DNA of 64,000 nt from Mobula hypostoma (taxonomy: Eukaryota), in contig NC_086097.1 in assembly GCF_963921235.1 (NCBI RefSeq), forward strand, positions 41,480,001 to 41,544,000, read 5' to 3'. Position numbers and translations under genes: made by a program. This document shows positions 13,551 to 57,755 of this stretch, one piece after another. The notes beneath the pieces were generated by a model that was not told the origin of the DNA, searched no databases, and saw only the letters and a list, made by a program, of their open reading frames with translations. Within the stretch, counting starts at the first letter, position 1, and each line of letters starts with the position of its first letter.

Positions 13551-16179
13551 ATGGAATGGTTTAAGAGTTACCGTTCTCTGATACATGGTCCAACAGACAA
13601 TTATTCAATGAACACCAGTAAGATATGGATTTGGCAATCTGCCCTCAAGGCCATCTATGAACTTCTAATCCATTTATAAGAAGGAGCTCAGACTATTATT
13701 AATACACACACTGATACCCAGCAACTGTTCGTTTCAACACTTCTATTTCCTGTCTGTTTCAGTCAGACTTTTATTGTGTTTCTAAATCCTTGTCTCCCTT
13801 TCCCTTCCTTTCTTCTCACTCTCTGTATTTTCTCTTCATGTCTGACATTTGTTAATCTTAATTTTATTATGCTGAGGCAAAATGAAGTGTGTAAAATATT
13901 AAAAGGTACATAACAAATTGATAAAGATAATGTTTGGCAATATATGAGAACTGTGGGCATTCTTCATATATGACAGATTAGTGATTGCAGTTTGTTGCAA
14001 GCCACAGTGTTTGAATATAATAGTGCCAGTAACATTATACTGTTTCTTTGCACTTGATATCAATCTGTCGATCTTCAGCCCATGCCACTCAGGGGCTTGT
14101 GCTCATTTTATTTTGTGACTGTATGCACCTGATCATAATGTATGTGTTGTGTGTGACTATATGTACTATGTTTTACACCTTAGCTCCAGAGGAGCAATGT
14201 TTCGTTTCGCTGTATACATATGCATGGTTAAATGAAAATAAACTTAAACTTGAGATGACACACAGATGTTAAACCTAAAACTTCATGATACCCAGCTTTA
14301 GATGTATGAGAAGTGACTGATCTACTAATTAATTAGTTAATAATCTATAACACATTTTTTTAAAAATCTGAAATACCTGATCACATGCTATAGAATCACA
14401 GAAACGTATATAATTGAATTGATTGCTCTCCAAACAGATTTTCCACAGCAAGAGGGGAGACAAACAGTCACTGTTTCACTGTTACAGTCTGTCTGTCTTG
14501 CTGCTTTTATTTCAAGTTCCCCCGACTCGAGATTCGGCAACAAACTCTCACTCACCATTGAGAGAAAGAGGGAGAGAAGGAGAGTGATCAGCTGAGTGCA
14601 GAGGACTCTGTCAGCCGAACTCACTGCCTTGATGTTCTGGTTCCCTGCTTTGCTTCAATTAGTGACACTGGTGAGAAATTGGGTCCACAGGGCCGCACTA
14701 GGGCATACCACGAAGGCGCCCATTTTCAGGGAGCTCCTGGAGATATCAAAAACATGGCCGATTGGTGAGCTCCAAGAACAGTAACATGCCATCGTGCAGA
14801 ACCGCCGTTTGAGTGCAACTGTAGATCACGGACACCGACAGGACCCCAGTCACCTTGAAAAGGGAAAATGAGACAATAGGAGAAATAGAGAAACATAGAA
14901 ACACAGAAAACCTACAGCACAATACAGGTCCTTTGGCCCACAAGGTTGTGCCGAACATGTCCCTACCTTAGAAATTACCAGGCTTACCCATAGCCCTTTA
15001 TTTTTCTAAACTCCATGTACCTATCCAAAAGTCTCTTAAAAGACCCTATCGTATCCTCCTCCACCACCATCGCTGGCAGCCCATTCCACACACTCACCAC
15101 CTTCTGAGTAAAAAACTTAACCCTCACACCTCCTCTGTACCTACTCCCCAGCACCTTAAACCTGTGTCCTCTTGTGGCAACCATTTCATCCCTGGGAAAA
15201 AGCCTCTGACTATCACCATGATCAATGCCTCTCATCATCTTATACACCTCTATCAGGTCACCTCTCATCCTCCGTTGCTAAGGAGAAAAGGCTGAGTTCA
15301 CTCAGCCTGTTTTCATAAGGCATGCTCCCCAATCCAGGCAACCTCCTTGTAAATCTCCTTTGCACCCTTTCTATGGTTTCCATCTCCTTCCTGTAGTGAG
15401 GCGACCAGAACTGAGCACAGTACTCCAAGTGAGGTCTGACCAGGGTCCTATATAGCTGCAACATTACCTCTCAGCTCCTAAATTCAACTCCATGATTGAT
15501 GAAGGCCAATACACTGTATGCCTTCTTAACCACAGAGTCAACCTGTGCAGCTGCTTTGAGCGTCCTGTGGACTCAGACCCCAAGATCCCTCTGATCCTCC
15601 ACACTGCCAAGAGTCTTACCATTAATACTATATTCTGCCATCGTATTTGTCCTGCCAAAATGAGCCACTTCATACTTATCTGGATTGAACTCCGCCTGCC
15701 ACTTCTCAGCCCGGTTTTGCATCCTATCAATGTCCCACTGTAACCTCAGACAGCCCTCCACACTATCCAAAACACCTCCAGCCTTTGTGTCATCAGCAAA
15801 CTTACTAACCCATCCCTCCACTTCCTCAACCAGGTCATTTATATAAATCACAAAGAGTAGGGGTCCCAGAACAGATCCCTGGTCACCAGTGGTCACCGAA
15901 CTCCATGCAGAAATGACTCATCTACTACCACTCTTTGCCTTCTGTGGGCAGGCCAGTTCTGGATCCACAATGCTATGTCCCCTTGGATCCCATACCTCCT
16001 TAGTTTCTCAATAAGCCTTGCATGGTGTACCTTATCAAATGCCTTGCTGAAATCCATATACACTACATCTACTACTCTTCCTTCATCAATGTGTTTTGTC
16101 ACATCCTCAAAAAATTCAATTAGGCTCGTAAGACACAACCTGCCCTTGACAAAGCCATGCTGACTATTTCTAATCATAT

Positions 16180-17030
16180 TGTTACGTACCCCGTAACTGG
16201 GTTGCCAAACCAGCAGAAATGGATCACTCAGTTGGAGTCTGGAGTACTAGAACTAAGAAAGTTTTATTAAAGAAACAAGCAACACAGTAATCGAAAGGAT
16301 AATAAATGCAACAATTCAACAATGATAACCACACATGTGCACAGAATTAAGATAACAGCATCAATCAAGCTCTATCGTTGTCTAGGGGTAAATGACCAAT
16401 TTCAAAATGACTCAAAGTTCAGTCCAGTTTGTAGTTCAGTTCGCAGTAATCGTTGCCATGGCGGTGGACAACGTGGGGGAAGAGAGAGATAGAATAGGAA
16501 CAACTCATCATTCAGAACGGCTTCACTCACAGACCAGCGGGATGGCTCACAGACCAGCGAGATGGTTCACAAACAGCTTTTGGGCGGGTCCTTGGTGATG
16601 TCACCTGAGGTCACCGACTGTGACCCCTCCTCCAGATGCGGTCGATCCTCTGCAGTGAACCCGGCACCCAGGCAAGGGCGGACACACACCGGGTTCCCGC
16701 TGATCGTACCTTTCCACCCACTCGTGAGAAGCGTACCGCTTCCAGGGTCTCGTTACCTCGGGTGGCGTGTGTCTGTCTTAGCGAACCTGTCCCTTTTTAT
16801 CCCCCTGCTGGGGTATCGCCTGTCCATCACTTCAAACAGTTCGGGGTTCAAAGGGGGGAGCCGCTCCAGACAGCTCTTCCTCCCACATCCCTTCATTACA
16901 CATCTCCAGACGCTGCTCCATTGTTCCTTATCTCTCCTTCCCCTGAGGGCAGGTGGCAGACCAACTGCTGATGCCACTGATGCTAGCCCAGGCCAGCAAA
17001 CATCTTAATTTTATGTGTATTCTCGTAACA
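16180..17030 (-). repeat. 3' LTR (851 bp)
   Basis: TG...CA termini with 7-bp inverted ends. By eye it differs from the other LTR at 2 positions (16759 and 16911). Confidence 0.95.
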
Positions 17031-17040
17031 CTTCCCCCCT
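17031..17040 (-). promoter_or_regulatory. Polypurine tract
   Basis: AGGGGGGAAG-type purine run on the minus strand abutting the 3' LTR. Confidence 0.8.
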
Positions 17041-17356
17041 TTAAGGATTTTTACCGGGAGGTAAAAATTACAAACATGACTACATTATCTGATACATACA
17101 CAATATACATCTTTAACAGTTATTTAGCTAATACAGAGAATTTGAAGCTGTCAACACCTTGACAGACAGTCATCACATTTTCTGTTCCTTTTACACGTGT
17201 TATTAATAATCCCTTAGACCAGGCTCCAACTCAGCAAACTTCATAGTGGCCAAAAACACTGATGAATTGCGACCAATGTAACCTCTCATTTGGTTTTGTC
17301 CCGGACCACAACAACAAGGGTCGTCCCATTCCGACTCAATTTTCCCTCTCAAGGGC

Positions 17357-20176
17357 TTAGTAGGAGGGGGACGGGTTATTGCAAAACTTCCTGCAGTACC
17401 CCACCATCTCCAAAAGCCTTCTGAGGGCCCTCTTGTCTGTCGGGGTTAGGAGGTCAGCGATAGCCTGCACTGTAGCTTGCATCACTGCCAGCTGCCCCTG
17501 TGTCACCACAATTCCCAGGTAAGTGACTCTCGTGTGGCCGAATTCATTTTTTTCAAGGCTCACTATCACGCTGGCTTCAGACAGCCGTGTTAAATTGCCA
17601 ATACACACCTCTGTGTTCATCAGCCCTTTAGTCACTGAATTACTCAAAAAATATGGGTGTTGTTTGCTTGGCTGCCCTATTGTAACCGACATAACCCAAC
17701 GTCCCAGTTCTTTGCATTTCCTCGGGACAATCAAACACATGGGTGCGAGTCGTTTAATTACTCCTTCGGGGATTAAGGGAGAGACCTTATCAGTAGACCT
17801 GGCCAAAACAATAGCCTTCTCCCATCTGACCGATCCCATCCTAATCTTTTCAAAATGGTTTTTTCCTCTTATCAGGGGGCCCCTAGCTTCATTGATTTCC
17901 ACGCTAACACCGACTAGGTTTGTTGGCATATCAAAAGCCGGTGACCGTCTCAGTTCGCGTCGGTCATGATCAATAACATTTTTCCCCCTGGGCAGCCGGT
18001 AACTCTCTTTCATGATTCCACCAACTGTTTCCTCCAGCACCGCAAAATGTCCACCGGGGGGTACCTCGTGGGCCATGTTAAAAACCTCATCCCCATAACT
18101 CTTTTGCACCACCCCCCATTCCTCATCTGCGGGTACTGTACTTGATTTCCCTTTCTTCCTTAGCACTTCCTCCTCCGCACAATAGCTTGTCAAGGCTGTG
18201 TCAGAGAGAGCGGTCTCGGCAAAAACCATCAGCCCCTCGTCTCGCTCCTGCGTCTGCACAAATTCTTTCCTGGCTACTGCTACGTCCGTCCCAGCTCCCT
18301 CACTACCTCTTATCTCACTACACCCTGTCTCATACAAGGTTGGCAGAAATGTTTCAGCCAAATTCACCATCGCGGGCGGGGCCTCCATGCTGGCAGGCTG
18401 ACCCGTCAATCTCACGACTGGGAACACGATTCCTCCGGCGATGTCATTACCGAGCAAGACTTCCACGTCTTTCATCGGTAATTCGGACCTCACCCCGATC
18501 GTGACTAGTCCAGAGACCAGGTTGCTCTGTAAATGTATCTGGTGCAAAGGGACTGACTCTGTCCCTTCCCCAACACCTTTGACCTCTACCTCCCCAGTCT
18601 GGGTCTCTGAGCTAAACTCTAATACACTCTTCAGTATTAGTGACTGACACGCTCCTGTGTCTCTCCAGATCCGTACTGGAACTGGTTTTAACCTCTCCTT
18701 CACTGACACCAGTCCGGCCGAGATAAACCTCTCGCGCCCTTCCTGGACTTTTTCAGACCTGTCCTTCCCTAGCGGTTCGCTTAACAGCTCAATACAGCCA
18801 TTCAAAATTTCCGCTTTTCCTTTCCCCGTCTCCTTCCTTGGGGCAAAGCACCTGGACGCAAAGTGTCCGACTTTCCCACAATTATAACAGACGACCCCAG
18901 GAGACTTCCTACCAGACTGCTCCCGGTCTACCTTATCCTTTTCACTAGTCCCCGGCTTACTTTCTGACTTTTCCGGCGGACTCTCCCCGCCGTCCTGACT
19001 ACCCTTCTGGTAGCCTTTACTCGGGGCAACCTTCATTTTATGCGTCAACGCATACTCATCCGCTAACTTAGCAGTTGCGGCTAACGTGGCTGCCTCTTTC
19101 TCATCGAGGTAGGGTCTCATACCCTCAGGGACACAACCTTTAAACTGCTCAATCAGAACCAGTTGCAGCAGTCTGTCATAATCCCCCTCTACCCCTTTCG
19201 AGGCGCACCAACGCTCACAATATGTTTGCATCTCGCGAGCAAACTCCAAATACGTGCGGTCCCACCGCTTCCTCGCATTCCGGAACCTCTGCCGGTATGC
19301 CTCCGGGACCAACTCATAAATCCTGAGGATGGCCTCTTTCACCACCTCATACCTCTGGGCATCTTCCGCGGATAAAGCGGAGTAAGCTTGTTGGGCTTTC
19401 CCTCTCAGTACACTCTGAAGTAAGACAACCCACTTATCCCTCGGCCATTCCTGACTTATGGCCACTTTTTCGAAATGGAGAAAGTACCGATCCACATCGG
19501 TATCGTCAAATGGGGGAACCAGCCTAACCTCCTGGGTCGCCCGGAACCCTCCACCTTGGTTCGGCACGAGCCCCTGCTCGGCCCTTATCTTTAACTTCTC
19601 CAGCTCAAATTCCCTTTCCCTCTGTTTCTCCTCTCTCTCCAACTGTCTGTCCCTCTCTCTCTCTTCTCTCTCCAACTGTCTGTCCCTCTCTCTCTCTTCT
19701 CTCTCCAACTGTCTTTCTCTCTCTTGCCTTTCTACCTCTTTCTCTCTCTCCCGCCTTTCTAACTCTCTCTCTTTCTCCTGCCTTTCTAACTCTCTCTCTT
19801 TCTCCTGCCTTTCTAACTCTCTCTCTTTCTCCTGCCTTTCTAACTCTCTCTCTTTCTCCTGCCTTTCTAACTCTCTCTCTTTCTCCTGCCTTTCTAACTG
19901 CCGTACCCGGAACTCGTGCTCGAGTCTCAGTTTTTCAAGCTGTACCTGTACCGCGTCTCCAGCAGGTTTTTCAATAGACACCTCCCCCAGCTCACCTTGG
20001 GGAAACACACCTTTAGATACATAGTGCTCTACAATAGCTCTGTGTATCTCCTCTCTCCTCATTGTCGACTTCACCTTAGCAAGATTCACCCGTTTTGCCA
20101 CAGCTATCAATTCCGATTTCCTGGCATCCTCTAATGCCTCCAAGGTCGGCGCCTTTATAAATTCCTCAACCTCCAT
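17357..20176 (-). CDS. 939-aa Gag (coiled coil, SCAN-like capsid, CCHC knuckle)-aspartic protease with degenerate integrase and RT relics
   Basis: YELVPEAYRQRFR...LIEQFKGCV...AKLADEY (SCAN-like), CYNCGKVGHFASRC, IWRDTGACQS protease, QERD..AHEVPPGGHF integrase Zn-binding relic, VTYLG...ALRRLLEMVGYCRKF RT thumb relic. Confidence 0.9.
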   Translation of the reverse strand: MEVEEFIKAPTLEALEDARKSELIAVAKRVNLAKVKSTMRREEIHRAIVEHYVSKGVFPQGELGEVSIEKPAGDAVQVQLEKLRLEHEFRVRQLERQEKERELERQEKERELERQEKERELERQEKERELERQEKERELERREREKEVERQERERQLEREERERDRQLEREERERDRQLEREEKQREREFELEKLKIRAEQGLVPNQGGGFRATQEVRLVPPFDDTDVDRYFLHFEKVAISQEWPRDKWVVLLQSVLRGKAQQAYSALSAEDAQRYEVVKEAILRIYELVPEAYRQRFRNARKRWDRTYLEFAREMQTYCERWCASKGVEGDYDRLLQLVLIEQFKGCVPEGMRPYLDEKEAATLAATAKLADEYALTHKMKVAPSKGYQKGSQDGGESPPEKSESKPGTSEKDKVDREQSGRKSPGVVCYNCGKVGHFASRCFAPRKETGKGKAEILNGCIELLSEPLGKDRSEKVQEGRERFISAGLVSVKERLKPVPVRIWRDTGACQSLILKSVLEFSSETQTGEVEVKGVGEGTESVPLHQIHLQSNLVSGLVTIGVRSELPMKDVEVLLGNDIAGGIVFPVVRLTGQPASMEAPPAMVNLAETFLPTLYETGCSEIRGSEGAGTDVAVARKEFVQTQERDEGLMVFAETALSDTALTSYCAEEEVLRKKGKSSTVPADEEWGVVQKSYGDEVFNMAHEVPPGGHFAVLEETVGGIMKESYRLPRGKNVIDHDRRELRRSPAFDMPTNLVGVSVEINEARGPLIRGKNHFEKIRMGSVRWEKAIVLARSTDKVSPLIPEGVIKRLAPMCLIVPRKCKELGRWVMSVTIGQPSKQHPYFLSNSVTKGLMNTEVCIGNLTRLSEASVIVSLEKNEFGHTRVTYLGIVVTQGQLAVMQATVQAIADLLTPTDKRALRRLLEMVGYCRKFCNNPSPSY
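19620..19900 (-). repeat. Coding tandem repeats in gag: 27-bp (ERQEKEREL) x ~5 and 33-bp (QLEREERERDR) units
   Basis: ctttctaactctctctctttctcctgc is repeated in tandem, and the repeats are visible in the translation. Confidence 0.9.
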
Positions 20177-20245
20177 TTCTGCTGTTTGTCTTTTCTTTCT
20201 TTCGGGAATTTTAACCCAATCAATTTACTCCGTCCCAAATTTAGC

Positions 20246-20271
20246 GTTCAAAATCGCGGACGAGAACCCCA
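20246..20271 (-). promoter_or_regulatory. Primer-binding site, tRNA-Pro-like (degenerate)
   Basis: Minus strand TGGGGTTCTCGTCCGCGATTTTGAAC, 4 nt inside the 5' LTR boundary, versus the tRNA-Pro complement TGGGGGCTCGTCCGGGATTTGAAC. Confidence 0.75.
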
Positions 20272-20275
20272 CTTA

Positions 20276-21126
20276 TGTTACGTACCCCGTAACTGGGTTG
20301 CCAAACCAGCAGAAATGGATCACTCAGTTGGAGTCTGGAGTACTAGAACTAAGAAAGTTTTATTAAAGAAACAAGCAACACAGTAATCGAAAGGATAATA
20401 AATGCAACAATTCAACAATGATAACCACACATGTGCACAGAATTAAGATAACAGCATCAATCAAGCTCTATCGTTGTCTAGGGGTAAATGACCAATTTCA
20501 AAATGACTCAAAGTTCAGTCCAGTTTGTAGTTCAGTTCGCAGTAATCGTTGCCATGGCGGTGGACAACGTGGGGGAAGAGAGAGATAGAATAGGAACAAC
20601 TCATCATTCAGAACGGCTTCACTCACAGACCAGCGGGATGGCTCACAGACCAGCGAGATGGTTCACAAACAGCTTTTGGGCGGGTCCTTGGTGATGTCAC
20701 CTGAGGTCACCGACTGTGACCCCTCCTCCAGATGCGGTCGATCCTCTGCAGTGAACCCGGCACCCAGGCAAGGGCGGACACACACCGGGTTCCCGCTGAT
20801 CGTACCTTTCCACCCACTCGTGAGAAGCGTACCGCTTCCAGGGTCTCGTTACCTTGGGTGGCGTGTGTCTGTCTTAGCGAACCTGTCCCTTTTTATCCCC
20901 CTGCTGGGGTATCGCCTGTCCATCACTTCAAACAGTTCGGGGTTCAAAGGGGGGAGCCGCTCCAGACAGCTCTTCCTCCCACATCCCTTCATTACACATC
21001 TCCAGATGCTGCTCCATTGTTCCTTATCTCTCCTTCCCCTGAGGGCAGGTGGCAGACCAACTGCTGATGCCACTGATGCTAGCCCAGGCCAGCAAACATC
21101 TTAATTTTATGTGTATTCTCGTAACA
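20276..21126 (-). repeat. 5' LTR (851 bp)
   Basis: Direct repeat of 16180-17030 at an offset of 4096 bp. Confidence 0.95.
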
Positions 21127-22735
21127 ATATTATACCTCATCAATTGTTCATAAAACCTGCCTCTCAGGATCTTCTGCATCAGCTTACCAACCACTGAAGT
21201 AATGCTCACTGGTCTATAATTTCCTGGGCTATCTCTACTCCCTTTCTTGAATAAAGGAACAACATCTGCAACCCTCCAATCCTCCAGAACCTCTCCCATC
21301 CTCATTGATGATGCAAGGATCATCGCCAGAAGCTCAGCAATCTCCTCTCTCGCCTCCCGCAGTGTCCTGGGGTACATCTCATCTGGTCCTGGTGACTCAT
21401 CCAACTTGATGCTTTCCAAAAGCTCCAGCACATCCTCTTTCTTAATATCTACATGCTCAAGCTTTTCAGTCCACTGTAAGTCATCACTACAATCACCATA
21501 GTGAATCCTTTTCTCTGTTCTTTTCCATAGTGAATACTGAAGTAAAGTATTCATTAAGTACCTCTACTATTTCCTCCAGTTCTATACACACTTTCCCACT
21601 GTCACACTTGTTAGGTCCTATTCTTTCATGTCTTATCCTCTTGCTTTTCACATACTTGTAGAATGCCTTGGGGTTTTCCTTAATCCTGCCCGCCAAGGCC
21701 TTCTCATGGCCCCTTTTGACTCTCCTAATTTCCTTCTTAAGCTCCTTCCTGTTATCCTTATAATCTTCTAGATCTCTAACATTACCCAGCTCTCTGAACC
21801 TTTTGTAAGCTTTTCTTCTTGGCGAGATTTATTTCAGCCTTTGTCCACCATGGTTCCTGTACCCTACCATAACTTCCCTGTCTCATTGGAACGTACCTGT
21901 GCAGAACTCCACACAAATATCCCCTGAACATTTGCCAACCATTTCTTCCGTACTTTTCCCTGAGAACATCTGTTCCCAATTAAAGCTTGCAATTTCCTGC
22001 CTGATAGCGTCATAATTCCCCTTACTCCAATTAAACGCTTTTCTAACTTGGCTATTCCTATCTCTATCCAATGCTATTGTAAAGGACATAGAATTATGAT
22101 CACTATCTCCAAAATGCTCTCCCACTGAGAGATCTGACACCTGACCAGGTTCATTTCCCAATACCACATCAAGTATACCCTCTCTGCTTATAGGCTTAAC
22201 TACATATTATGTCAAAAAACCTTCCTGAACACACCTAACAAACTCCACCCCATCTTAACCATCTAAATCTAAAGGAGAAGAATGTAAACTGTTTCACTGA
22301 TCGGCTGGGAGAAGTTGCCCTCTGGCGCCATCTTTACCTCTGCCCTTACTCTTTTTTTTGTATTGCATATGTTTCAGTAATCAAATTTATCCAAACCCAG
22401 AGGCACAAGAGACTGCAGGAGCTGGAATCTGGACCAACAAACAAGCTGCTGGAGAAACAGTGCATTGAGTGGCATCTGTCGGGGTTACTCAATTCTATCT
22501 TACGTCAATGATTGAAATTAGGGGACGTCATTGCTGATTCCAGATCAGAAATACATTGTAACCTCTCAGTCTATCAAAATCCTTCATGAAGTAATAATTA
22601 TATCTACTTTCCTCTTCACCTTCTCTGTTCTAGTAGAAATTGCCCCTGTAGTTCTTATCCTATTTTTCATAATTCTGGTGAAGTGTCTGAAGCCACTGAT
22701 GGTTCTGGTGAGTTGATTGTCAACGTCTCTTATTC

Positions 22736-25700
22736 ACAAGATCACAAGACAAAGGAGCAGAAGTAGGCTATTCGGCCCATCGAGTCTGTTCCGCCACTCC
22801 ACCAAGAGCTAAACTATCCTCCCATCTAGTTCTAATTTCCAGCTTTTTCCCCATATCCCTTGATACCCTGACTAATTAGATATCTATCAATCTCCTCCTT
22901 AAACACCCTCAATGATCGGGCCTCCACAGCTGTATGTGGCAACGAAATCCATAAATCTACGACCCTCTGGCTAAAAAAATTTCTCCCCATCTCTGTTTTA
23001 AATGGGTAACCTCTAATTCTAAGACTGTGGCCTCTGGTCCTGAACTCACCCACCAAGGGAAACAGCCTTTCCATATCTACTCTGTCCAACCCTTTCAACA
23101 TTCAAAATGTTTCTATGAGATCCCCTCTCATTCTTCTATACTCTAATGAATAAGCCAAGAGCCGACAAACGCTCCTCATATGTTAGCCCCTGCATTCTAG
23201 GAATCATCCCCGTAAATCTTCTCTGAACTCTCTCCAACATCAGAACATCCCTTCTAAGATAGGGGGCCCAAAACTGCACACAGTATTCCAAATGAGGGCT
23301 CACCAGTGTCCCATAAAGCCTCATGAACACCTCTTTACTCTTATACACTATTCCTCTTGAAATGAATGCCAACATAGCATTCGCTTTCCTTACTGCCGAT
23401 CCAACCTGGTGGTTAACCTTTAGGGTATCCTGCACGAGGACCCCCCAAGTCACTTTACACTTCTGATTTTTGAATTTTCTCCCCATCTAAATAATAATCT
23501 GCCCAATTATTTCTTTTTCCAAAATGTACAACCATACATTTCTCAACATTGTATCTCATCTGCCATTTCTTTGCCCACTCTCCTAATCTGACCAAGTCTC
23601 TCTGCAATCTTTCCCTTTGTTCAACACTTCCTGCTCCTCCACCTATCTTGGTGTCATCCGCAAACTTAGCCACAAAACCATTTAATCCATAACCTAAATC
23701 ATCGATATACATTGTAAAAAGAAGCGGCCCCAACACTGACCCCTGCGGAACACCACTAGTAACTGGCAACCAATCAGAATAGGATCCCTTTATTCCCACC
23801 CTTTGCTTTCTGCCTATCAGCCAATGTTCCACCCATTCCAATATCTTTCCTGTAATTCCATGGGCTCTCATCTTATTAAGCAGCCTCTTATGCGGCACCT
23901 TATTGAAGGCCTTTTGAAAATCCAAATACACAACATCCACAGCCTTTCCCTTGTCAATCTTATTTGAGATTACCTCAAAAAATTCCAATAGGTTGGTGAA
24001 GCAGGATCTTCCCTTCATGAAACCATGCTGGCTTGGGCCTATCTTGTCACGCACCTCGAGGTATTTCATAACCTTGTCCTTGAGGATCGACTCCAATAAC
24101 TTTCCAACTACCGATGTCAGACTAATAGGTCTGTAATTTTCTTTTTGCTGCCTCCCTCCTTTCTTAAGCAGCGGAACTACATTTGCGACCTTCCAGTCCT
24201 CCAGAACCATGTCATAGTCTGTTGATTCCTGGAAAAACATTTCCAATGCCTCCACAATCTCCAAAGCCACCTCCTTCAGAACCCATGGGTGCACCTCATC
24301 CAGTCCAGGAGCCTTATCTATTCTTAGTCCATTTAGCTTCCCAAGCACTTTCTCTCTCGTAATCTTGACTGTACCTAATTCTATTCCCTGAGACCTCTGG
24401 CTATCAGGTATGTTGCTCACTGTGAAGACTGATGCAAAATACTCATTTAGTTCCTCTGCCATCTCTTTGTTACTCATTATAATTTCTCCAGCATCATTTT
24501 CAGTCAGTCCTATATCTAACCGTGTCACTCTTTTACCCTTCATATATTTAACAAAACTCTTGGTATCCTTTTTTATGCTAATTACCAACTTCCTTTCATA
24601 ATTCATCTTTTCTTTCCTAATGACTTTCTTAGTTTCCTTCTGTAAGTTTTTAAAAGTGGTCCAGTCCTCAGTTTACTCACTAATTTTTGCTTCCTTGTAC
24701 GCAGTCTCTTTTGCTTTTATTTTAGCCTAAACCTCTCTCGTTAGCCACATTTGTGCCATTTTTCCATTTATGGTTTTCTTTTTTTCTGGAATATATTTTT
24801 CCTGCACATTACTTATTTCTTGTAGAAATTTCATCCAATTCTGCTCTACCGCCACTCCATCTAGTTTACTTTTCCAATCGACCTGGGCCAGTTCTTCTCT
24901 CATACCACTGTAATTTCCTTTGTTCCACTGAAATATCGATACACCTGATACCAGCTTCTCCTTTTCAAATTTGAAACTGAACTCAATCATATTATGATCA
25001 CTACTTCCAAGGGGTTCCATTACCTCCAGTTCCCTAATCATCTCCGGTTCATTACACAGCACCTAATCCAAACCAGCTGATCCCCTGGTGGGCTTATGGA
25101 CAAGCTGCTCCAAAAAGCCATCCTGTAGGCATTCTATAAACTCACTCTCCTGAGATCCAGTACCTTCCTGGCTTTCTGAATCCACTTTCATATTAAAATC
25201 CCCCATAATTATCTTGACATTTTCCTTCTGACACGCTTTTTCTATTTCCAGCTGTAACTTGTAGTCCACATCCTGGCTGCTGTTTGGAGGCCTGTATATA
25301 ACTGCTATTAGTGTCTTTTTACCCTTGCCATTTCTTAACTCGACCAATAAGGATTCTACCTCTTCTGATCCTATGTTCCTTCTTTCTGGTGATTTGATAT
25401 CGTTGCTTACCATCAGGGCCACGCCACCCCCTTTACCTACCTTCCTATCTTTCCTATATACTGTGTATCCTTGGACATTCAGCTCCCAATCACATCCATC
25501 ATTTAGCCATGACTCGGTGAAGGCCACAATGTCATATCTTTTAACCTGTAGCTGTTCAACAAGGTCATCCACTTTATTTCTAATGCTGCATGCATTTAAG
25601 TACAGCACATTTAGATCAATATCTGTTACCAATTTTGCTATATTTCTGTTGCACAGCAAATTATCCTGTCCATTCACCTGCCTGCCCTTCTTGCCATCTT

Positions 25701-26900
25701 TGCTGCACAGTATCTTTGTCTTATTTCTATTTTCCTCTTCCTCGACCCTAACACCCTGGTTTCCTTCCCCCTGCCAATTTAGTTTAAACCCTCCCTAACA
25801 GCTATATTAAACAATCCTGCCAGGATATTATTACCCTTTGAGTTCAGGTGTAACCCATCGTTTTTGTATAAGTCATACCTCCTCCAAAATAGATCCCAAT
25901 GATCCAAGAATTTGAAGCCCTGCCCCCTGCACCAGTTACTTAGCCACATATTTATCTGCTTAATTCTGCTATTCTTACCTTCATTAGTGCTTGGCTCAGG
26001 CAGTAATCCTGAGATTATTACTCTGGAGGTCCAGCATTTCAAGTTTCTTCCTAGCTCCCAGTAATTTTCCTTCAGGACCTCCTCTCTTTTTCTGTCTATG
26101 TCATTGGTACCAACATGTACCAAGACTTCTGGCTGCTCGCCCTCTCTCCTCAGAATACTCTGGACCCAATCTGAGACAAACCGTACCCTGGCACCAGGCA
26201 GGCAACACACCATCTGGGTATCCTTGTCTGGCTCGCAAAATTTCTTGTCTGTTCCCCTCACTATGGAATCCCCTATAACTACTGCATTTCTCCTTGCTTT
26301 CTTGAACACAGTGCTGGGCAGAGTGCCAGAGTCCCATTCGCTGTGGTCTTCCTCTATCAGCTCAACTTCTCCAACAGTATCTAAAACGATAAATCGATTT
26401 CTGAGGGGGACTGTCACAGAGGTGCTGTCCACTGTCTCTCTATAGGTATTATCAATCACCTCCTCACTTTCCCTAATTAGCTAAAGGTCATCAAGTTGCA
26501 GCTCCAGATCCCTAACACGGTCCTTAAGGAGCCTCATCTCAATGCACCTGGTGCAGATGTAATGCTTGGGGAGGCTGGGGGTCTCCCAGGGTCCGCACAT
26601 CTGGCATTCCAAGCACAACACTAATCCTAGATGCATACCTCTAATGTTACTGTTATTACTAAATAAGTAACCTGTAACCTACCCCTTTACTATGAGACTC
26701 AGCGGTCGCAGGAAACCTCTTCCTGTTTCCACCTAAGCCCGTTGAGCCAAAGCCCTATCACTCTGCACCCTCTCACTCCGCTGCCCACTCCGACGCTGCC
26801 CGCTGGATATGATGGTGTTCCATATATGGATATGGTGGATATGGAGGCCTTCCGCACTTTGAGGTCATGCGCTTGCACAGTTGTGCCTCTTTTATCCCAA
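22736..26900 (-). mobile_element. Near full-length CR1 LINE: ORF1 (SGNH esterase) and ORF2 (APE endonuclease, RT), with a few lesions
   Basis: VIGDSIVRG, LVHVGTND and DGLHLN esterase motifs (25779-26459). YLNACSIRNK, YRPPN, MGDFN and SDH endonuclease motifs (24727-25677). QGSVLGP and FADD RT motifs (23455-24606). 3' tail (cacaagat). Confidence 0.95.
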
Positions 26901-44611: not shown

Positions 44612-46801
44612 TGTTGTGTTTTTTATAGGAACCGTGAGTTACTCATAAAGACACATATACTGGAAGAACATAACTAGAACTTTTATTTAACAGCAAATAG
44701 AAACCATGTCTTAACATACAAGCTTCTCGATCATTCTGTCAGTTATGCGCCTGCTCATAACTCCGTCCAATCACGTTCTTACATGTGACACGTGATATCA
44801 CCCCATTTTCCTTTCCTTAAAAAGAAAACAATTAGCAACATTAATCAGAACAAATACATAATTTAACATGTCTCTATCAGTCTCTCTGGGGATTTACTAA
44901 CACGAGTAGACCTAAGTAGTTCACACAGTTCTTGTGTTTCATTGTTATTTTCATGTTTCGTCTGGTCTGCATCAGTAAGGGGAAACTCTGAAGTTGGCTC
45001 TTCCTTGAGGTCTTTAAGAAGAAATTGTAATTCATTCATTAACTGTGTAATCTCTTTTTTATGCTGAGACTTCATCATTTCAATAAAACTTCTCAATTCC
45101 TTCACTTGTGCTTTCATTTCTTCAAATGGATCCTGATTCTTGCCACTCTTCGGCTTCAGATCAGTATTGTACTGTACCGGTAAGTTTGGTTTTGGTGGCG
45201 GGGCTTTGTCAGATGCTGGTAACAAAGGGATGGGTCTGGGATCTTTCTTTATGACTTCTTTTACTTTTGCCGCATTGGAACCAAATTCTGTTCTCTCTCT
45301 CTCTCTTTCATCAAGTCACTGTATTCTGACTCTGTGTCACTGTCCAGGACTAAAACTCTTTTTACCAAGTTCAGTTTCTCACAGGCAGATAGACCCAGTA
45401 TTGACTATACATTTTTTGGCACTACCACAAATGAAAGCATGTGCTCAATATTCTTGTGTGATACTTTGACCACACATGTTTCTTTAACTGGAATGTCTGC
45501 ACCTGAATACCCAGTCACTTTTATATTTGTCTGATGTAACTTTGGTCTTGGCTTTAATGCATTAAACTCAGATTCTGCAAGAACATTTACTTGTGCTCCA
45601 GTATCCAGTTGAAACAGAATATTGTTTTAGTTCACTTGCAATGGCATAGTCCAGTCATTCTTACTTTCTTTGTTTTCACAAAGCAAATCAATGTAAAACT
45701 CCTCACGTTCATTTTCAAGTACTGCATTTACATGTTTTATTTCCTTTCTACTTCTGCAACAGCGTGAAAAATGATTAATCTTACCACAGTTGTTGCACAG
45801 TTTCCAATATGCTGGACAGATTTTAGGTCGGTGCTGCCACCCACAGTGATCACAAAGTTTTTTTTTCAAACGACGTCTTGCTCTCTATTGGTTTCTAGTC
45901 GCTTCATTATTTTTTCTAACATGTTCATGGTTATTCACAGCGTGTTCGCTGCAGTTCTCAATAAAAAGCTCTTTAGCCTGTGACTTTACGGTTTCTGGAG
46001 CTTTTCAGAGAATCAAAGCTTTTTCCAAATTTACGTCTGGTTCCCTTAAGAGTCTTTCTCTCACAGCATTATCCAGAATGCTGCAAACAATTCTGTCTTT
46101 AACAAGAGATTCCGTCAGCTCTGCAAACTCGCTTGTCTTACTGTGGTTTCTCAATTCTGTAACAAATTGATCAATCGTTTGACCAGCTTTCTGCTTGCAT
46201 GTAAAGAATTTATACTGTTCATATGTCACATTGCGCTTCGGTATACAAAATCACTCAAACTTGTCGATTATTGCTCTTAGGTTCAAATTATCTCCATCTT
46301 GAAAAGTAAGATGGTTATATACCTCAATTGCGTCATCCCCAATCACGTGGAATAGAACTGCAGCTTTTGTTTTCTCCATTTTATTATCTGCTCCGATTGC
46401 CAATAAATAAATTTCAAAACTCTGTTTAAATCTTTTCCAGTTTTCAGCTACATTTCCAGTCAGCTGAAGTGTTGATGGGGGTTGCAAAACTTCCATTGTT
46501 AAAGCTGTTAGCAAACAAAGAAAAAGTTCACACTTTTTTTTCCAATTATTTTCGCTTCTCCCATGTTAGCAAAACGAATTATTCTTCCAGACTGACTTCT
46601 GACACCATGTTGTGTTCTTTATAGGTACCATGGGTTACTCATAAAGACACATATTCTGGAAGAACATAACTAGAACTTTTATTTAACAGCAAACACCAAC
46701 CACATCTTAACATACAAGCTTCTCAATCATTCTGTCAGTTCTGCTCATGCTCATAACTCCGTCCAATCACATTCTTACACGTGACATGTGATATCACCAC
46801 A
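44612..46801 (-). mobile_element. Non-autonomous gypsy-type LTR element (gag-protease remnant, foreign insert, integrase tail)
   Basis: 194-bp LTRs at 44612-44805 and 46608-46801, TG...CA, ~18 differences by eye. CTTCC target-site duplication (44607-44611 and 46802-46806). PBS TGGTGTCAGAAG and PPT. Gag LQLTGNVAENWKRFKQSF, double Zn knuckle, protease FQLDTGAQVNVL. Confidence 0.92.
45030..45295 (-). pseudogene. SH3KBP1: Captured fragment resembling the SH3KBP1 (CIN85) C-terminal Pro-rich and coiled-coil region
   Basis: SDKAPPPKP...TDLKPK...FEEMKAQVKELRSFIEMMKSQHKKEITQLMNEL versus recalled human SH3KBP1 SDNKASLPPKP...TEGKPK...[33 protein letters not shown]. Confidence 0.72.
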
Positions 46802-47359
46802 CTTCCCACGGTCTGGATTTTGTTGTTCCATCCCAAATATCCCAAAACTGAGGAGGAAGTTAAGAGTCAAGCTTATTGGTGTGTCTGGAACTGCATATAA
46901 GACAGACAGTGTGAGAGGATGGCAGAATTCCTTCCCTAGAGCACATCAGTGAATCAGATTGTTTTTTTAATGATGATCCAGTTGTTTCATAGCTACTGAG
47001 ATTAGCTTTTTTAATTCCAATGTATTTATTACTTTGTTTTAAATTTTCCAATTGCCATGGAGCATCTGGACCTGTGTCTCTGGATCAATGGTCCAGAAGC
47101 CAGTGAGATGATCAAATAATTTATCTCTGTGTTGCCGTGCCTCTGAGACATTTAGTTTGGGTTTGCTGCTGGAAGACTCTGTAGCTTGACATTTTCATGT
47201 CAAAAATTATATGCTGTTGAAAGTACTGTGCTGGCACCAGCTTCCAAATCAAGGGTCATGATCAGTCAGTGACAATCCAGCAGTCCTCTACAATCTCGTG
47301 AAATCAAATCTGCAGTATTTTCAGAGAGGTGATGCAAAATTACTGGATGAAATCCAGTC

Positions 47360-55594: not shown

Positions 55595-56099
55595 AATTTC
55601 CTTTCCCTTTAATCTCAAAGTCTTTTCTCACTTCAAATCTTTCTAAAATAATTGTTCCTCAAGGGAGAGGGAACTGAGTATAGGCAATTAACAGTCTGAT
55701 TAATAAGTTAAGATGATGGTCGGCTAAAGTATTTCTCAGATAGAGCTTGCCTTGTAGGCATTTGCGAGTGTGTTGCATCACCTCCACAATTATTTTAATT
55801 GATCTACAACTCATCCCTTAAATTTTAAAAATGTCTTTGGGCATTTCTGTTTACCAGAGTGAAACATGAAACATGCGGAAAGCAGCATGAATATCTTGTC
55901 AATAATCAATGCTTTAGGTGCTAGTGTTTAAACTGGGAGGATTGAGAATTGTATGGGGGCTCGCTATGTTGTGACAAGGTACAACACGCGAGGCTGCGAC
56001 ACAAGGTAAGAGCCCATGTTGTTGGAGGCAAGGTACCAGCATGGATAGAAGATTGGCTGACTGCCAGAAGGTAGAGAGTGGAGATGATGGGCTCTCTTT

Positions 56100-57755
56100 G
56101 AGGATGAGGACGGAGGGTCCAGTGAGATGGAGGAACTGAGGGAAATACACGTTAATAGGGAAGTGGTGTTAGGTAAATTGAAGGGATTAAAGGCAGATAA
56201 ATCCCCAGGGCCAGACGGTCTACATCCCGGAGTGCTTAAGGAGGTAGCCCCAGAAATAGTGGATGCATTAGTGATAATTTTTCAAAACTCTTTAGATTCT
56301 GAACTAGTTCCTGAGGATTGGAGGGTGGCTAATGTAACCCCACTTTTTAAAAAAGGAGGGAGAGAGAAACCGGGGGATTACAGACCGGTTAGCCTGACAT
56401 CGGTGTTGGGGAAAATGCTAGAGTCAGTTATCAAAGATGTGATAACAGCACATTTGGAAAGCGGTGAAATCATCAGACAAAGCCAGCATGGATTTGTGAT
56501 AGGAAAATCATGTCTGACAAATCTCATAGAATTTTTTGAGGATGTAATTAGTAGAGTGGATAGGGGAGAACCAGTGGATGTGGTATATTTGGATTTTCAA
56601 AAGGCTTTTGACAAGGTCCCACACAGGAGATTAGTGTGCAAACTTAAAGCACACGGTATTGGGGGTATGGTATTGATGTGGATAGAGAATTGGTTGGCAG
56701 ACAGGAAGCAAAGAGTGGGAATAAATGGGACCTTTTCAAAATGGCAGGCAGTGACTAGTGGGGTACCGCAAGGCTCAGTGCTGGGACCCCAGTTGTTTAC
56801 AATAGATATTAATGACTTAGACGAGGGAATTAAATGCAGCATCTCTAAGTTTGCGTCTGACACGAAACTGGGCGGCAGTGTTAGCTGTGAGGAGGATGCT
56901 ATGCGGATGCAGGGTGACTTGGATAGGTTAGGTGAGTGGGCAAATTCATGGCAGATGCAATTTAATGTGGATAAATGTGAGGTTATCCACTTTGGTGGCA
57001 AGAACAGGAAAAGAGATTATTAACTGAATGGTGGCCGATTAGGAAAAGGGGAGGTGCAACGAGACCTGGGTGTCATTGAACACCAGTAATTGAAAGTGGG
57101 CATTCAGGTACAGCAGGCGGTGAAAAAGGCGAATGGTATGCTGGCATTCATAGCAAGAGGATTCAAGTACAGGAGCAGGGAGGTACTACTGCAGTTGTAC
57201 AAGGCCTTGGTGAGACCACACCTGGAGTATTGTGTGCAGTTTTGGTCCCCTAATCTGAGGAAAGACATTCTTGCCATAGAGGGAGTACAAAGAAGGTTCA
57301 CCAGATTGATTCCTGCGATGGCAGGACTTTCATATGGGATGAAAGACTGGATCCTAGGCTTATACTCGCTGGAATTTAGAAGATTGAGGGGGGGATCTTA
57401 TTGAAACGTATAAAATTCTAAAGGGATTGGACAGGCTAGATGCAGGAAGATTGTTCCTGATGTTGACGAAGTCCAGAACGAGGGGTCACAGTTTAAGGAT
57501 AAAGGGGAAGCCTTTTAGGACCGAGATGAGGAAAAATTTCTTCACACAGAGAGTGGTGAATCTGTGGAATTCTCTGCCACAGGAAACAGTTGAGGCCAGT
57601 CCAATGGCTATATTTAAGAGGGAGTTAGATATGGCTCTTGTGGCTAAAGGGATCAGTGGGTATGGAAAGAAGGCAGTTACAGGGTTCTGAGTTGGATGAT
57701 CAGCCATGATCACACTGAATGGCCTACTCCTGCACCCATTTTCTATGTTTCTATG
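56100..57755 (+). mobile_element. Relatively young 5'-truncated CR1 LINE nested in an older CR1
   Basis: 298-aa open RT segment (KSPGPDG...QGSVLGP...KFASDTK) and a 3' tail. Older CR1 pieces lie at ~55960-56100 and resume at ~57760. Confidence 0.92.

Follow-up and report, generated by a model that had tools for sequence, protein, structure and literature searches.

The locus described here raises the question of how a retroelement can lose the catalytic parts of its pol region and still keep a single reading frame open through what is left of it. The window (the whole stretch of 64,000 nucleotides that was analysed) carries at 16180-21126, on the minus strand, a Gmr1-type element of 4,947 bp. 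It is bounded by a 5' LTR at 20276-21126 and a 3' LTR at 16180-17030 (with AATAAA at LTR position ~763), both of 851 bp with TG...CA ends, and by an ATAT target site duplication (TSD) at 21127-21130 and 16176-16179. The two LTRs differ at two sites, both CpG/TpG; re-reading of both sides confirmed LTRs and TSD as the earlier note, made from the letters alone, had given them. All features of the element lie on the minus strand, among them an imperfect primer binding site (PBS) of the tRNA-Pro type at 20253-20271, the same as in several autonomous copies, and a polypurine tract (PPT) at 17031-17042, the same as in the autonomous partner. ARAGORN called two tRNA-Pro genes, in one of the three loci scanned.

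The insertion site is the reverse transcriptase (RT) region of a multi-copy LINE, which we take to be a CR1. The RT frame of this LINE, with an RVT_1 match in the left flank, is interrupted by the element and resumes across the TSD (15893-16179 and 21127-21563). Further LINE fragments are found at 23455-26480 and 56088-57023. A second gypsy element, unrelated to the first, lies on the minus strand at 44612-46807, between 200-bp LTRs that are 90% identical; it contains a decayed gag and protease followed, instead of pol, by a piece of the SH3KBP1/CIN85 coiled coil (PDB match, E 1e-6). The possibility that this SH3KBP1-like piece (44863-45315) is a host exon was rejected, since it sits within the second gypsy element.

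The 939-aa ORF, located at 17357-20176 by open reading frame translation, encodes Gag, a protease and a relic of pol. Gag contains a charged tandem repeat of 27/33 bp (19592-19897), which differs in length among copies (of the 58 position-picked copies, a sample described below, in which it was measurable, 50 have a multiple of 3), a SCAN or capsid C-terminal domain (19037-19306, aa 291-380, Pfam E 9e-13) and a CCHC zinc knuckle (18848-18892, aa 429-443, Pfam zf-CCHC). The aspartic protease core (18407-18736; family-branch dN/dS 0.23-0.28) has its DTG at aa 506-508, and the SCAN-like, CCHC-bearing Gag and the DTG protease first noticed in the sequence were thus recovered. The relic, ~1.1 kb long, consists of ~390 codons fused in frame with Gag-protease, and it aligns to the partner in three pieces. 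The first (17933-18376) corresponds to the pre-integrase linker together with one half of the zinc finger of integrase, with two zinc-finger His retained, CxxC gone and a VTR-containing junction segment deleted. The second (17642-17932) comprises the integrase-RT linker and the RT N-terminus, the whole integrase core being lost at the join. The third (17375-17641) is a piece of RT palm and thumb, in which YIDD has become CIGN and from which the RT fingers are deleted. A remnant of RNase H lies at 17150-17356; most copies translate the first part of it, but the window copy does not. Compared with the partner, the family therefore lacks the post-protease segment with the VTR motif, which is presumably a site of cleavage, the CxxC and the entire DDE core of integrase, the fingers and YIDD of RT, and the N-terminal half of RNase H. 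None of the catalytic motifs of integrase, RT and RNase H is left, and a Pfam scan of the 939-aa ORF gave no rve, RVT_1 or RNase H match up to E 1. The alignment bears out the relic order of integrase then RT, the missing DDE core and the altered YIDD position claimed earlier, and the scan agrees with the claim that no intact RT or integrase is present.

In the available portions of the published accounts, the Gmr1 clade of Ty3/gypsy elements is distinguished by an integrase upstream of RT and by a SCAN domain in Gag (PMC8220671, PMC4131045). In the ray family, the integrase is upstream of RT in the relic and in the partner, Gag has the SCAN domain, and the elements possess TG...CA LTRs, PBS, PPT and a short TSD, which is 4 bp long and matches in 51 of the 60 copies picked by position and in 37 of the 38 picked by gag. 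Judged by its domain order and SCAN domain, the family is a Gmr1-type gypsy element. It resembles the clade in these two traits (the order being found in one ORF in the partner), and differs from the clade as described in those portions by being non-autonomous. It has no working RT, RNase H or integrase (no Pfam match; catalytic segments deleted or substituted), it has been amplified in the defective form (the deletion joint is present at 1,278 places, with distinct TSDs), and it has an autonomous partner with the same cis ends. The proteins nearest to the 939-aa ORF are 98% identical to it and annotated from Mobula hypostoma, and the full-length relatives, which bear no family name, have the domain order SCAN, protease, integrase, RT, RNase H. 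A literature search retrieved no published account of a non-autonomous Gmr1 family. Two family ORFs, P0001 and P0008, are annotated under host gene names (MACC1 and phosphatidylserine decarboxylase isoforms). This points to gene models that are chimeric or to copies that have been exonised, and is a warning for annotation, as such relic ORFs get called genes.

The 1,278 places are exact genome matches to a 26-base word across the integrase deletion, and represent a lower bound, the word being present in 76 of 78 copies checked. Three samples of copies were drawn: 39 picked by the relic, 38 picked by gag, and 60 picked by position on contig 1. The last are 60 of the first 66 matches, the window copy, four copies already sampled and one tandem neighbour having been skipped. 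The 39 relic-picked copies were left out of the break counts because they had been chosen by likeness to the relic, and the variant counts exclude L162, which aligns poorly in codons 540-724. Family ORFs measure ~925-1023 aa. In the position sample, 26 of 60 copies are open from the ATG to the family end, and in most of these the two LTRs differ little; in the gag sample, 26 of 38 copies are open to the end. Random breaks in the relic of other copies, which the earlier note held to speak against its reading, do occur, 34 of the 60 position-picked copies being broken (20 of the 60 with a lesion within codons 601-935), but nearly all these breaks are private. The window copy is itself a slightly broken member, because a private 14-bp deletion costs it ~56 codons: the ORF, described earlier as fully open, is present, but its frame ends ~56 codons before the family stop at a deletion near 17376 (site 17370-17380) that is missing from all 29 other copies compared and found at one place in the genome. 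Seven matches at G000:C21:47202943-47226521 are spaced regularly at 3,926 bp and likely form a head-to-tail tandem of the family sharing LTRs. In L131, L169, L171 and L176, the 3' LTR runs directly into a PBS-like TAAG. Four runs guessed to be RNA, of which X5 is the one examined, contain the relic; these are contigs, and may be DNA or host-gene read-through. The DNA runs of the same organism as the window that contain the relic all derive from a single sample.

An autonomous partner sharing LTR ends and PBS had been anticipated. A search with the integrase core led to 20 loci and brought it to light, with the PPT also in common. Four of these loci hold single ORFs of 1,535-1,564 aa, in one frame with no stop or shift, and autonomous copies are 6.3-6.7 kb long; the young ones have the same PBS and PPT as the element, and LTRs 88-96% identical to its own. 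L074 and L075 (G000:C80:24468000-24482900) are tandem autonomous copies with a common LTR and an ORF of 1,564 aa each. An integrase-core word, present in 12 of the 20 partner loci, occurs at 32 places in the genome, which would put the ratio of family to partner at roughly 40:1, both counts being lower bounds and the two words unequally conserved.

Different parts of the family do not have the same history. The dS to the young partner is 0.04 in gag, 0.28 in the protease and 0.60 in the relic, and in trees, gag falls among the youngest autonomous copies, the protease deeper, and the relic near an older subfamily, L083. An AU test rejects the grouping of relic codons 604-845 with young partners (p=0.01; long branch). 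A first relic tree, which placed the family beside young partners, was rejected: it contained the recombinant L088, without which the relic falls near L083. In a tree of 43 LTRs, those of family and partner interleave, and an AU test rejects monophyly for the 30 non-autonomous ones (p=4.6e-6). L088 combines a family-type 5' part with a partner-type pol, and L152 has a partner junction inside a family body. From these trees and recombinants, the LTRs and gag are refreshed through recombination with the partner, the relic being older. LTR swapping has reportedly been described in soybean, by Du et al. 2010. The label 'very young' given to the element thus holds for the insertion, whose LTRs are near-identical, but not for the relic, which is old by its dS, its deeper tree position and its presence in other organisms. 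In three other sampled organisms, runs reach a likeness of at least 85% over 29-30 of the 30 bins into which the stretch was divided, and single contigs span the integrase joint (X9) and the RT joints (X13, X16). Because the runs cover the relic stretch and contigs bridge the deletion joints, the deleted form probably predates the separation of those organisms.

Is the relic then maintained as a protein? Branch dN/dS was estimated on 331-351 codons, with three older autonomous subfamilies as third sequences. On the relic branch, dN is 0.25-0.26 and dS 0.25-0.31, a ratio of 0.83-1.01 (bootstrap range 0.56-1.83), while the partner has a ratio of 0.12-0.13 on the same codons. The RT palm/thumb piece, with 77% amino-acid identity, gives 0.48-0.58, with an interval that includes 1. 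Among variants found in at least 4 of 137 copies, dN/dS is 0.16 in capsid-nucleocapsid, 0.18 in the protease and 0.58 in the relic, and there are no stops; among singletons of the same copies the values are 0.76, 1.00 and 0.97, respectively, with 12 stops across the three regions. The common variants of gag and protease (N19/S45) differ from those of the relic (N41/S28; p=0.0009), and common differ from singleton variants with p=5e-8 in gag and protease, and p=0.08 in the relic. By these ratios, purifying selection acts on gag and protease (dN/dS about 0.2), and the relic is near-neutral in amino-acid sequence on its own branch. The gag signal may be partly imported, because much gag variation is common to the partner (20 of 31 shared variants). 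Some protein-level constraint on the relic may nevertheless exist, because its common variants, at 0.58, lie below the 0.97 of its singletons.

The reading frame, in contrast, has been kept. In a nucleotide alignment of family and partner that was blind to frame, all 15 blocks of at least 36 nt hold one phase until the last 11 codons, a 14-nt frameshifting loss 11 codons ahead of the family stop ending the agreement. The fixed or common indels of the family lineage comprise 13 in-frame events and one frameshift, counted in part by hand in alignments of 60-85% identity, such that short compensated frameshifts inside gaps would escape; their polarity was derived from the longer forms in P0010, P0011 and P0014. 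Eleven of the 13 fall within codons 600-935, and the chance of 11 in-frame indels is (1/3)^11 = 6e-6. Among the rare indels of the same region, in contrast, a hand tally over the gag-picked and position-picked samples gives 17 frameshifts and 6 in-frame events (Fisher p about 1e-4 against the fixed or common ones). Older copies keep in-frame intermediates, such as a post-protease junction shortened by 36 nt and then by 27 nt, and deletions of 12 and 18 nt are still segregating. A neutral simulation on the relic led us to expect 6-8 stops, and none is fixed; the probability of none is at most 0.001 at d 0.25-0.30, and about 0.01 at d=0.15. Between the stop and the 3' LTR there are 172 nt in the family and 120 nt in the partner; were the stop directly after the protease, this distance would be ~1,360 nt, with ~2.1 kb of 3' UTR. 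Thirty codons before the end, at codon 965, a +1 frameshift that shifts the stop by 28 nt only is present at 58 places, 7 of which belong to one tandem array; a +1 in the same base run makes up a third of the depth in one contig run of another organism (X16). Outside the last ~35 codons, no frameshift has spread.

It therefore appears that translation through the relic, and not its sequence, is the main object of selection, because indels are in frame and no stop is fixed despite near-neutral dN/dS, while rare indels are mostly frameshifts. The selection for an open frame that the earlier note had proposed is upheld by these counts. Of the two roles it had offered, one at the level of frame or RNA fits better than a new protein role, because relic dN/dS is near 1 and C-terminal residues change by frameshift; a mild constraint (0.58, p=0.08) may accompany it.

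How could translation matter for an element that makes no enzymes? We consider it reasonably probable that RT and integrase act in trans within mixed particles and that the RNA is protected or licensed by being translated to a point near the LTR. The enzymes would likely be borrowed from the rare autonomous partner, with whose Gag-Pol the Gag-protease-relic protein would co-assemble, and co-packaged RNAs could exchange LTR and gag by template switching. The element may also build a capsid of its own, as the earlier note had proposed. For its survival and packaging, the family RNA would need translation that reaches almost to the 3' LTR. An early stop would expose it to nonsense-mediated decay (NMD), or uncouple it from its own Gag, so that only in-frame steps would be open to the element as it shrinks. 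In RSV, RNA whose gag carries a premature stop is packaged less, according to the available part of one account (PMC5035971). Our search found no literature on NMD, non-autonomous elements and gag-pol together.

Some observations run counter to a strict form of this rule. A 199-bp frameshifting deletion of the protease region is present at 4 places, and the two examined have different TSDs; an in-frame 456-bp deletion in gag is present at fewer, namely 2. The latter removes most of the capsid region in L059 and L069, which are independent insertions, and a copy without its own intact capsid has therefore been mobilised at least once. A stop at codon 739, in a CpG hotspot, is common to two older copies that are nearest neighbours. 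Shared breaks at codons 599 and 706, in homopolymer runs, and a CpG stop at 948 occur in unrelated backgrounds, and we read them as recurrent rather than inherited; the 771+1 break is recurrent in L100, and may be inherited in L157 and L163. Judging from these copies, broken templates can be mobilised, but rarely: the 199-bp frameshift at 4 places and the CpG stop in two neighbours argue for occasional mobilisation.

Other explanations have to be considered. The relic tail might be a weakly constrained protein module on Gag-protease, helping its own RNA to recruit partner Gag-Pol, for instance via the RT thumb. The similarity and ratio of the palm/thumb piece (77%, 0.48-0.58) and the 0.58 of common relic variants point in this direction, as do the loss of the VTR-containing junction, by which the tail would stay attached, and the cis action reported for the IAP 1Δ1 fusion protein in the portions available (PMC6466679, PMC7411935). 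However, the dN/dS of the whole relic is 0.83-1.01, the thumb interval includes 1, deletions go on removing pieces of the tail, and its last 30 residues are replaceable by frameshift, so that we regard this explanation as unlikely. Retention of the relic for RNA signals (packaging, dimerisation, minimum length), the open frame being a side effect, would fit the persistence of ~1.1 kb over a long branch and in several organisms; it predicts neither indels in multiples of 3 nor the lack of stops, third positions have diverged at least as much along the relic branch (0.28) as along the partner lineage (about 0.23), and we find it very improbable. As for youth of the copy or chance, youth does account for single intact copies (the 26 of 60 that read through), but a frame open for these reasons is hardly credible in the face of a relic-partner dS of 0.60, 13 in-frame indels, the 6e-6 calculated above and a simulated probability of no stop of at most 0.001.

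The family could also be a supplier of Gag and protease that corrects the Gag:Pol ratio of the partner, to the gain of both, the open relic serving only to stabilise the supplier mRNA. An unbroken single-frame Gag-Pol in the partner, the ratio of about 40:1, purifying selection on gag and protease, and the interleaved LTRs of both kinds are compatible with it, but plain parasitism accounts for the same counts, and the 20 of 31 shared gag variants also found in the partner weaken it further; we give it little credence. We are rather doubtful, too, of a wider conjecture, that of a two-part system in which a rare single-frame Gag-Pol copy and a 40-fold commoner supplier, shrinking by threes, stay linked because they recombine constantly, with the supplier determining the stoichiometry of the particles for the two of them. 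If it were true, the need to be translated would be a general rule for defective gypsy elements. Enzymes borrowed in trans, with translation through the relic required in cis, thus stay our preferred reading.

Non-autonomous LTR elements are usually seen as non-coding parasites, and in the ray family, selection for the frame can be told apart from selection for the protein. It provides a natural series of more than 1,000 alleles, with intermediates still present and private mutations as a control, on which one can test whether cis translation or RNA surveillance decides which defective retroelements spread. In the literature that we searched, neither this family nor a dead gypsy pol selected for its frame alone was described, and Repbase or Dfam may already list the family.

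Among known systems, mouse IAP 1Δ1, reportedly treated by Saito et al. 2008, has several traits in common with the ray family. In the portions of the literature available (PMC6466679, PMC7411935), it too is a non-autonomous LTR element in which internal deletion produced one in-frame gag-pol fusion ORF, with proteins needed in trans; most new IAP insertions come from it, and its fusion works in cis, translation being reported to matter there. The cis need of translation is thus a reported one for IAP 1Δ1, whereas in the ray family its basis is population genetics. IAP 1Δ1 is moreover an endogenous retrovirus with, as described there, one 1.9-kb deletion that takes part of gag, whereas the ray family is a gypsy element with integrase before RT and no env, has a whole Gag and protease, and went through 13 successive in-frame indels with dN/dS near 1. 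The C/D pair of ERVK[2-1-LTR] in cattle, in the part of the report available, is alike in that the defective type outnumbers the competent one and that recombination homogenises the flanks around a diverging centre, but D-type elements have no intact ORF (PMC10924933), and the divergent centre of the ray family is still translatable. In plants, TR-GAG and other families retaining GAG/PROT keep Gag with or without protease and lack working enzymes, and some sugar-beet families retain decayed pol pieces (PMC13570524, in part); non-autonomous Athila elements have intact ORFs under purifying selection (PMC2410132, in part). A TR-GAG has an ORF for Gag with or without protease and no pol, whereas the ray family has its relic codons fused in frame, and the portions of these reports that we saw mention no dead pol kept in frame without amino-acid constraint, unlike what is found here. 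The ray family works like IAP 1Δ1 and the plant TR-GAG and Athila non-autonomous families, and is a member of none of them.
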